From: Escherichia phage PhiR68_2
Reading direction: 5' to 3' (one strand)
Length of the DNA: 49,669 nucleotides
Sequence record: PV340576.1
Each line of letters begins with the position of its first letter. Position 1 is the stretch's first letter. Below are positions 7,481 through 7,544 of this stretch, piece after piece. The position numbers and the translations under genes were made by a program. The notes beneath the pieces are model-generated. The model made no database searches, was not told the origin of the DNA, and saw only the letters and a list, made by a program, of their open reading frames with translations.

Positions 7481-7544
7481 ATACGCTTGCGTATTGATGG
7501 TCAAAACACGTTTTGCTATTGCTTGGATTAATACGCATTGCTAT
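7481..7544. promoter_or_regulatory. rightward operator cluster (oR-like): three 14-bp sites at 7481..7494 (ATACGCTTGCGTAT, perfect palindrome), 7506..7519 and 7531..7544 (ATACGCATTGCTAT), 25-bp periodicity
   Basis: Three evenly spaced related sites between divergent cI and cro starts, analogous to OR3-OR2-OR1. Confidence 0.65.

Follow-up and report, generated by a model that had tools for sequence, protein, structure and literature searches.

Three evenly spaced 14-bp sites between divergent cI and cro genes of Escherichia phage PhiR68_2 as the probable right operator of a lambdoid switch with non-lambda specificity

The window, by which we mean the whole 49,669-nucleotide stretch of Escherichia phage PhiR68_2 DNA (PV340576.1) analysed here, is a lambdoid phage or prophage. 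Its translations include what we take to be lambda-like Bet and Gam proteins, and presumably also O-, P- and Ren-like genes in the lambda order. In its immunity region, a leftward repressor gene and a rightward cro gene diverge from a gap of 110 bp (7469-7578), with the A of the cI ATG at 7468 on the minus strand and the cro ATG at 7579. Three related 14-mers lie in this gap, and the genes, sites and other features on either side of it are as follows.

5207-5228: terminator-like hairpin after the cargo genes
5227-6682, minus strand: pair of cargo genes encoding 341-aa and 149-aa proteins, located between cI and oL
6776-7468, minus strand: cI repressor, 230 aa, with a 434-like helix-turn-helix N-domain and an S24 self-cleaving C-domain
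7481-7494, strandless: OR3 analogue, ATACGCTTGCGTAT, within the predicted pRM spacer and overlapping its -10 by 1 bp
7506-7519, strandless: OR2 analogue, ACACGTTTTGCTAT, between the two predicted -35 hexamers, the poorest match to the consensus
7531-7544, strandless: OR1 analogue, ATACGCATTGCTAT, within the predicted pR spacer and overlapping its -10 by 3 bp
7579-7806, plus strand: Cro, 75 aa, YdaS family, with the recognition helix GVAQPTVWR
7831-8376, plus strand: gene in the CII position, Pfam YdaT_toxin at 8e-30, classed by PHROG as a CII-like activator

A preliminary description of this DNA had placed three related 14-mers at 7481, 7506 and 7531 with an exact start-to-start spacing of 25 bp in a 110-bp gap, and direct reading of the sequence bears out the sites, the spacing and the gap. 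It had also called the 7481 site a perfect palindrome; the 6-bp arms, ATACGC and GCGTAT, are fully complementary, but the central TT is asymmetric. Three-way identity of at least 8/14 at a period of 25 is found at a single place in the 49.7-kb window, namely at these three sites, and with periods of 15-40 and the same identity, just a tail-fibre heptad repeat and one other spot appear besides oR. The motif search of the whole window located the ATAS-N6-STAT skeleton six times, where 1.6 occurrences are expected and none of 100 shuffles reached six, and four of the six matches (5035, 5060, 7481 and 7531) fall into two clusters, the one between cI and cro (oR) and another near 5 kb (oL, described below). 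A first degenerate pattern skipped the 7481 site, the centre of which aligns differently with the pattern. The half-site consensus ATAGCAA, giving the full site ATAGCAATTGCTAT, was compiled from sites some of which had been picked with the position weight matrix (PWM) and is therefore partly circular; its outer ATA is nearly invariant, and the left half of OR2, ACACGT, matches it poorly. As in lambdoid right operators, oR consists of several partially symmetric sites with one consensus and ATA...TAT arms, located between divergent repressor and cro genes.

Other repeats were considered and set aside. The triple repeats at 40985-41466 are coding heptads in a tail-fibre gene and not operators; the corresponding ORF (40328-43405, 1025 aa) has a long Ala/Ser-rich heptad region, which is the source of their period of 21. 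Separately, a 14-mer at 7560-7573, ATACCAATAGGAAT, is site-like by score and overlaps the cro Shine-Dalgarno sequence. Its ATAC and GGAAT are conserved in relatives while the remainder of the leader drifts.

Two promoters could be predicted across the sites, one with a promoter scan and the other by eye.

7476-7504, minus strand: predicted pRM, -35 TTGACC (7504-7499), 17-bp spacer, -10 TAAATT (7481-7476)
7519-7547, plus strand: predicted pR, read by eye, -35 TTGCTT (7519-7524), 17-bp spacer, extended -10 TGC-TATTAT (7539-7547)

The predicted pRM scored 9/12 in the scan and both of its hexamers are invariant in relatives. The scan missed pR, its -35 matching at 3/6 positions only; the TTG and TGCTATTAT of pR are likewise invariant in relatives, and its predicted start is at about 7554. 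As consensus matches, the -10 and -35 elements of both promoters overlap the sites, and on this promoter geometry we infer that 7531, 7506 and 7481 are the analogues of OR1, OR2 and OR3, respectively. OR2 is centred near -44 relative to the predicted start of pRM, which itself falls at about 7468-7469, on or beside the cI ATG. Given this start, and given that the 7 nucleotides preceding the ATG vary in sequence but keep a constant length among the aligned relatives and have no Shine-Dalgarno sequence, the cI mRNA is likely to be leaderless. A longer cI reading frame opening at TTG 7504 was rejected: its first codon would fall within the operator and the pRM -35, and the counterpart of the ATG at 7468 is the start in most annotated homologues.

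A second set of sites (5035, 5060 and a weak one at 5080) lies over a strong leftward promoter some 2.5 kb left of oR.

5032-5060, minus strand: predicted pL, -35 TTGATA (5060-5055), 17-bp spacer, -10 TATTAT (5037-5032)
5035-5048, strandless: oL1, ATAGCTATTGCTAT, overlapping the predicted pL -10 by 3 bp, in register in relatives
5060-5073, strandless: oL2, ATACTTATTGCTAT, 25 bp from oL1, overlapping the predicted pL -35 by 1 bp
5080-5093, strandless: candidate oL3, ATGTGTTTTGATAT, 20 bp from oL2, a weak match in the window
5104-5117, strandless: conserved half-site ATAGCAA with an A/T tract behind it, upstream of the predicted pL

The predicted pL is the best promoter-scan match in 4400-8000, at 10/12, with a predicted start at about 5025. 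Its register mirrors that of pR, the proximal site sharing 3 bp with the -10 and the distal site 1 bp with the -35, so that pR and pL sit in the same register relative to their own site pairs. Scored with a PWM built from oR only, the oL sites reach 13.1 and 11.7, and a score of 13.1 is attained in about 30% of shuffled windows; because they are individually unexceptional by this measure, the case for oL rests on exact spacing, promoter register and conservation. The position of oL3, weak in the window, is occupied by a strong site, ATAGCAATGGCTAT, in the Klebsiella phages, as alignment and scanning of the relatives showed. Judged from these sequence features, the 5035/5060/5080 set is oL/pL, a second operator set of the same consensus at the leftward early promoter, as in lambdoid phages.

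Upstream of pL, the segment 5101-5125 reads TTGATAGCAAAA(A/T)GAATT followed by a T tract; it is conserved in all four lineages described below and contains one ATAGCAA half-site, and its candidate roles are a fourth site, an UP element or some other function. No N-like ORF was found in 4838-5030, the stretch from the predicted pL to the Kil-like first gene (4548-4838). The pL leader of about 190-270 nucleotides has no Rfam match and no similarity to HK022 or relatives, and its predicted fold is not unusual (z-score of -0.7). An Rfam search of 4400-8400 for put-like or other RNAs returned just two sub-threshold small RNA matches over the terminator.

The region was compared with those of related phages. 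In the E. coli phages PhiR30_1, PhiR70_1, 4A7, 4C10, D2, 1W, 3W and Perceval, the immunity region is 97-99% identical at the nucleotide level, while the cI protein is 82% identical in two Klebsiella phages and 86% identical in Salmonella P22-like phages of ST104 type, including BTP1. The three sites and their 25-bp spacing are kept, nearly invariant in sequence, in four other lineages among these E. coli, Klebsiella and Salmonella phages. With the pair of closely related Klebsiella phages left out of the ranges, identity between lineages is 88-96% over the 72-bp block 7476-7547, 72-75% over cI, 61-73% over cro and 44-63% over the pR leader. Differences inside the block lie in the two spacers and at inner positions 5 and 6 of OR1, the only OR1 positions that vary between lineages. 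OR2 is invariant in all four lineages and BTP1; OR3 is the same in the Klebsiella phages and ST104 and carries one change in BTP1. In the set of 80 IMG/VR loci whose N-domain is identical, oR comes in 36 haplotypes; most of their variation lies in the OR2-OR1 spacer and in the leader, and OR3 has a single variable position. By the oR-only PWM, 66 of the 80 loci have an oL-like pair 25 bp apart at 1.4-2.7 kb beyond cI, despite differing cargo. SaltyDalty, the cI of which is 77% identical, has sites 33 and 25 bp apart and an OR3 separated from the start codon by 4 bp; neither the 25/25 layout nor a leaderless cI is therefore universal in the family. The site in its OR1 position is a perfect palindrome, ATAGCAATTGCTAT, which defines the consensus.

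Two further observations concern variation within the group. In IMG/VR prophages with an identical cI N-domain, the distance between oL and oR ranges from 1.4 to 2.7 kb and takes about 30 different values, and the slot between the same operators therefore holds many alternative cargoes. Between BTP1 (3403-3466) and ST104 (4199-4262), one base differs in OR3 (GCGTAT in ST104, GAGTAT in BTP1) and one in OR1 (ATACTC in ST104, ATACTA in BTP1), changes of some interest in a phage reported to have high spontaneous induction.

The proteins encoded on both sides of the gap fit with a repressor operator. cI matches Pfam HTH_3 at 1.8e-6 and Peptidase_S24 at 1.3e-18, and S98-A99-G100, S143 and K180 are invariant in an alignment of eight homologues. 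We take A99-G100 to be the Ala-Gly cleavage site and S143/K180 the Ser/Lys dyad, as in LexA and lambda cI. By its sequence, cI has the features of a self-cleaving repressor of the S24 type (both domains, the Ala-Gly site and the dyad), and because its residues correspond to the cleavage site and dyad of LexA and lambda cI, RecA-dependent induction is expected. A phmmer search against the PDB aligned residues 6-66 with residues 2-62 of 434 repressor (60 residues, gapless, E of 2e-5), homology that extends over the whole five-helix DNA-binding domain of 434 type; the C-domain has no sequence match to the lambda or 434 structures and its best match is UmuD. The recognition helices of cI (GVAQPTIWR) and Cro differ at one residue, and the cI N-domain is 40% identical to its own Cro over 48 residues; this identity and the common GVAQPT(I/V)WR support the recognition of the same sites by cI and Cro.

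The closest solved relative of the window's N-domain is 434 repressor, and 434 operators are 14 bp long with the outer bases conserved, as are the window sites. The half-sites differ, being ATAG/ATAC in the window and ACAA in 434. A 434 immunity specificity was rejected on this ground: it would require ACAA-N6-TTGT, and the sites read ATAS-N6-STAT. Gln28 of 434, which we take to contact adenine 1, aligns with Gln32 of the window cI, and every half-site begins with A. Gln29 and Gln33 of 434 align with Pro33 and Arg37, and these replacements fit a different specificity at positions 2-5.

HK022 specificity, hinted at by the ST104 record, which annotates its own cI and cro as HK022-like, was rejected as well. 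The window cI is 40% identical to HK022 CI overall and 50% in the C-domain, but only 29% in the N-domain, and the HK022 operators are TGAAC-N5-GTTCA sites spaced 33 and 24 bp apart.

We then asked which phages carry which sites. In the phages with an AQPTIWR helix (the window, ST104, BTP1, the Klebsiella phages and SaltyDalty), oR and oL each consist of ATAG/ATAC-type sites, and such sites are absent from HK022, Klebsiella phage 2 LV-2017 and Providencia PSTCR7lys. The repressor of Klebsiella phage 2 LV-2017 (3370-4190) is a naturally occurring hybrid that combines a C-domain sharing 88% identity with that of the window and an N-domain of HK022 type, which is 24% identical to the window's. The sites in the intergenic region of this phage follow the HK022 pattern, TGAAC-N5-GTTCA at 33- and 24-bp spacing. 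Thus, as far as these sequences tell, operator type follows the repressor N-domain, and this natural N-domain swap provides the co-variation of operator and DNA-binding domain that marks a lambdoid right operator. The hybrid also indicates that a C-domain of the window type works with different site spacings, because its own sites are 33/24 bp apart.

These results bear on whether the repeats are repressor sites at all, rather than promoter-related A/T-rich repeats or sites for a YdaT-type CII or a host nucleoid protein. The right half TTGCTAT supplies the TG of the extended -10, and its TAT is part of the -10 hexamers, so that some of the conservation could reflect promoter function alone. 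However, OR2 and OR3 are equally conserved without supplying the pR -10, and neither the dyad symmetry nor the recurrence of the motif at pL is expected of promoter elements or host-factor sites. Moreover, the motif is replaced exactly where the repressor N-domain is replaced, and CII-type activator sites in known systems lie inside or beyond cro. We therefore regard a non-repressor origin of the repeats as very improbable.

By contrast, it is very probable that the three 14-mers constitute the right operator of a lambdoid cI/Cro bistable switch. Promoter overlap, the oL set, site conservation, the tracking of the N-domain and a repressor with both HTH and S24 domains are all consistent with the tripartite cI/Cro operator that the preliminary description had proposed, and its further suggestion of a non-lambda immunity specificity agreed with every computational test. 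In such a switch, cI dimers would read each pseudo-symmetric site through the 434-like helix-turn-helix domain. Occupation of OR1 and OR2 by cI would block pR, because OR1 overlaps the extended -10 and OR2 touches the -35, and cI bound at OR2, with its centre near -44 of the predicted pRM, may activate pRM as in lambda. Filling of OR3, which lies within the spacer of pRM, would end the synthesis of cI. Cro, whose recognition helix is almost that of cI, would occupy these sites too and lower pRM and later pR. The mirrored pair with its weak third site (5035, 5060 and 5080) would control pL, about 2.5 kb from oR, and may permit looping between OL and OR, and RecA-stimulated self-cleavage of cI at A99-G100 with S143 and K180 would lead to SOS induction.

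Cooperativity between adjacent dimers and pRM activation from OR2 are predicted from the geometry (25-bp spacing, OR2 near -44) and from the homology to the cooperative HK022 CI. An alternative is that the sites are real cI/Cro operators working by a logic other than lambda's, being non-cooperative, or extremely cooperative with a silent third site, or having a pRM that is not activated from OR2. Published lambdoid switches do differ in cooperativity, activation and occupancy order: the 933W repressor is reported to bind non-cooperatively (PMC3317979), and the HK022 switch is described as extremely cooperative with a silent third site (PMC8053113). In addition, Klebsiella phage 2 and HK022 combine the same C-domain family with sites spaced 33/24 bp, and spacing therefore dictates no single mechanism. 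On the other hand, centre-to-centre spacing in lambda is 24/23 bp at OR and 24/20 bp at OL, and the window values of 25/25 at oR and 25/20 at oL are close to these. Furthermore, OR2 is the weakest site, just where cooperative help would be needed, and HK022 CI, the C-domain of which is 50% identical to that of the window, binds cooperatively and loops OL to OR (PMC8053113), the closest experimental backing for cooperative binding in the window. We consider a non-lambda logic unlikely, with a real though minor chance of being correct, and favour the lambda-like switch.

Two classes of half-site can be told apart, an ATAGCA-type and an ATAC(G/T)N-type, and most sites pair one of each. The ATAGC-type half usually faces the -10 of the lytic promoter, and OR3 alone is built of two ATACGC halves. 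It is conceivable, but rather doubtful, that half-site class gives cI and Cro opposite orders of preference among the sites even though their recognition helices are almost the same. If so, discrimination would be encoded by half-site class and not by graded degeneracy as in lambda.

Comparison with lambda places the window within a familiar plan. Like lambda, it has divergent pRM and pR promoters, three sites between cI and cro, a cI mRNA predicted to be leaderless, a second operator set at pL (about 2.4 kb away in lambda), accessory genes between cI and oL, a repressor with an S24 self-cleaving C-domain, and sites spaced by about 2.3-2.4 helical turns from centre to centre. Unlike lambda, in which 17-bp sites are separated by 3-7 bp, the window has 14-bp sites with 11-bp spacers and an unrelated consensus, and its N-domain resembles that of 434. 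It also differs in having a YdaS-family Cro and a YdaT-family gene in the cII position, and no N gene after pL.

The window has the immunity type of ST104 and BTP1: the repressors share 86% of residues over their full length and 90% over the N-domain and have the same recognition helix, the Cro proteins share 69%, and the same three sites with the same 25-bp spacing are accompanied by a matching oL pair. ST104 and BTP1 differ from the window in their P22-like backbone, their N-like gene and their other cargo (bstA or orf23), and BTP1 also in the single-base changes in OR3 and OR1. ST104 is a recognised distinct repressor type of P22-like phages (PMC10307801). CP-933P shares with the window the YdaS family for Cro and the YdaT family in the CII position, the latter also being the CII-position family of phi80, as well as a leaderless repressor gene, shown for paaR2, and multiple evenly spaced sites over PRM and PR plus an OL set (PMC8630535). 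Unlike the window repressor, PaaR2 is not of the cI type with HTH and S24 domains, and its operator consensus is GTTTAGTAA in 18-bp repeats (PMC8630535).

We found no description of the operator sequences of the ST104/BTP1 immunity type in the searchable literature, nor any binding data there for the window repressor or its close relatives. The architecture is the known lambda paradigm and adds nothing conceptually; what is given here is an operator set, new to the literature searched, for an immunity type that is very common. The module occurs in E. coli, in Salmonella phages of ST104 type and in BTP1 of the epidemic African S. Typhimurium ST313. Of 5426 complete E. coli genomes, 719 cover at least 80% of the cI-cro region and 2213 contain some part of it, a difference indicating that some segment of the module is common to another widespread prophage type; the partial matches are 95-99% identical. 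A written consensus, ATAGCAATTGCTAT, together with site numbering and promoter register, can serve prophage annotation and the prediction of cross-immunity between E. coli, Klebsiella and Salmonella phages, and offers a candidate orthogonal repressor/operator pair for circuit design. For BTP1, it supplies concrete bases in OR3 and OR1 that differ from those of ST104.

The slot between cI and oL, which is occupied by rexAB in lambda and by bstA in BTP1, contains in the window the 341-aa and 149-aa genes, for which Pfam, PADLOC and PHROG gave no family matches. In BTP1 lysogens, cI is expressed with the downstream bstA from a single start site (PMC7067206), and by analogy with this operon and with lambda rexAB, the two cargo genes are probably co-transcribed with cI. 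They are candidates for lysogen-expressed, maybe defensive, genes. In the phage database, the 341-aa protein has a single relative, from Acinetobacter phage TCUAN1 (39% identity), and the 149-aa protein is membrane-like. In the early right operon, right after the ren-like gene, 10457-10789 presumably encodes an EmrE-like small multidrug-resistance transporter, as recognised by eye.
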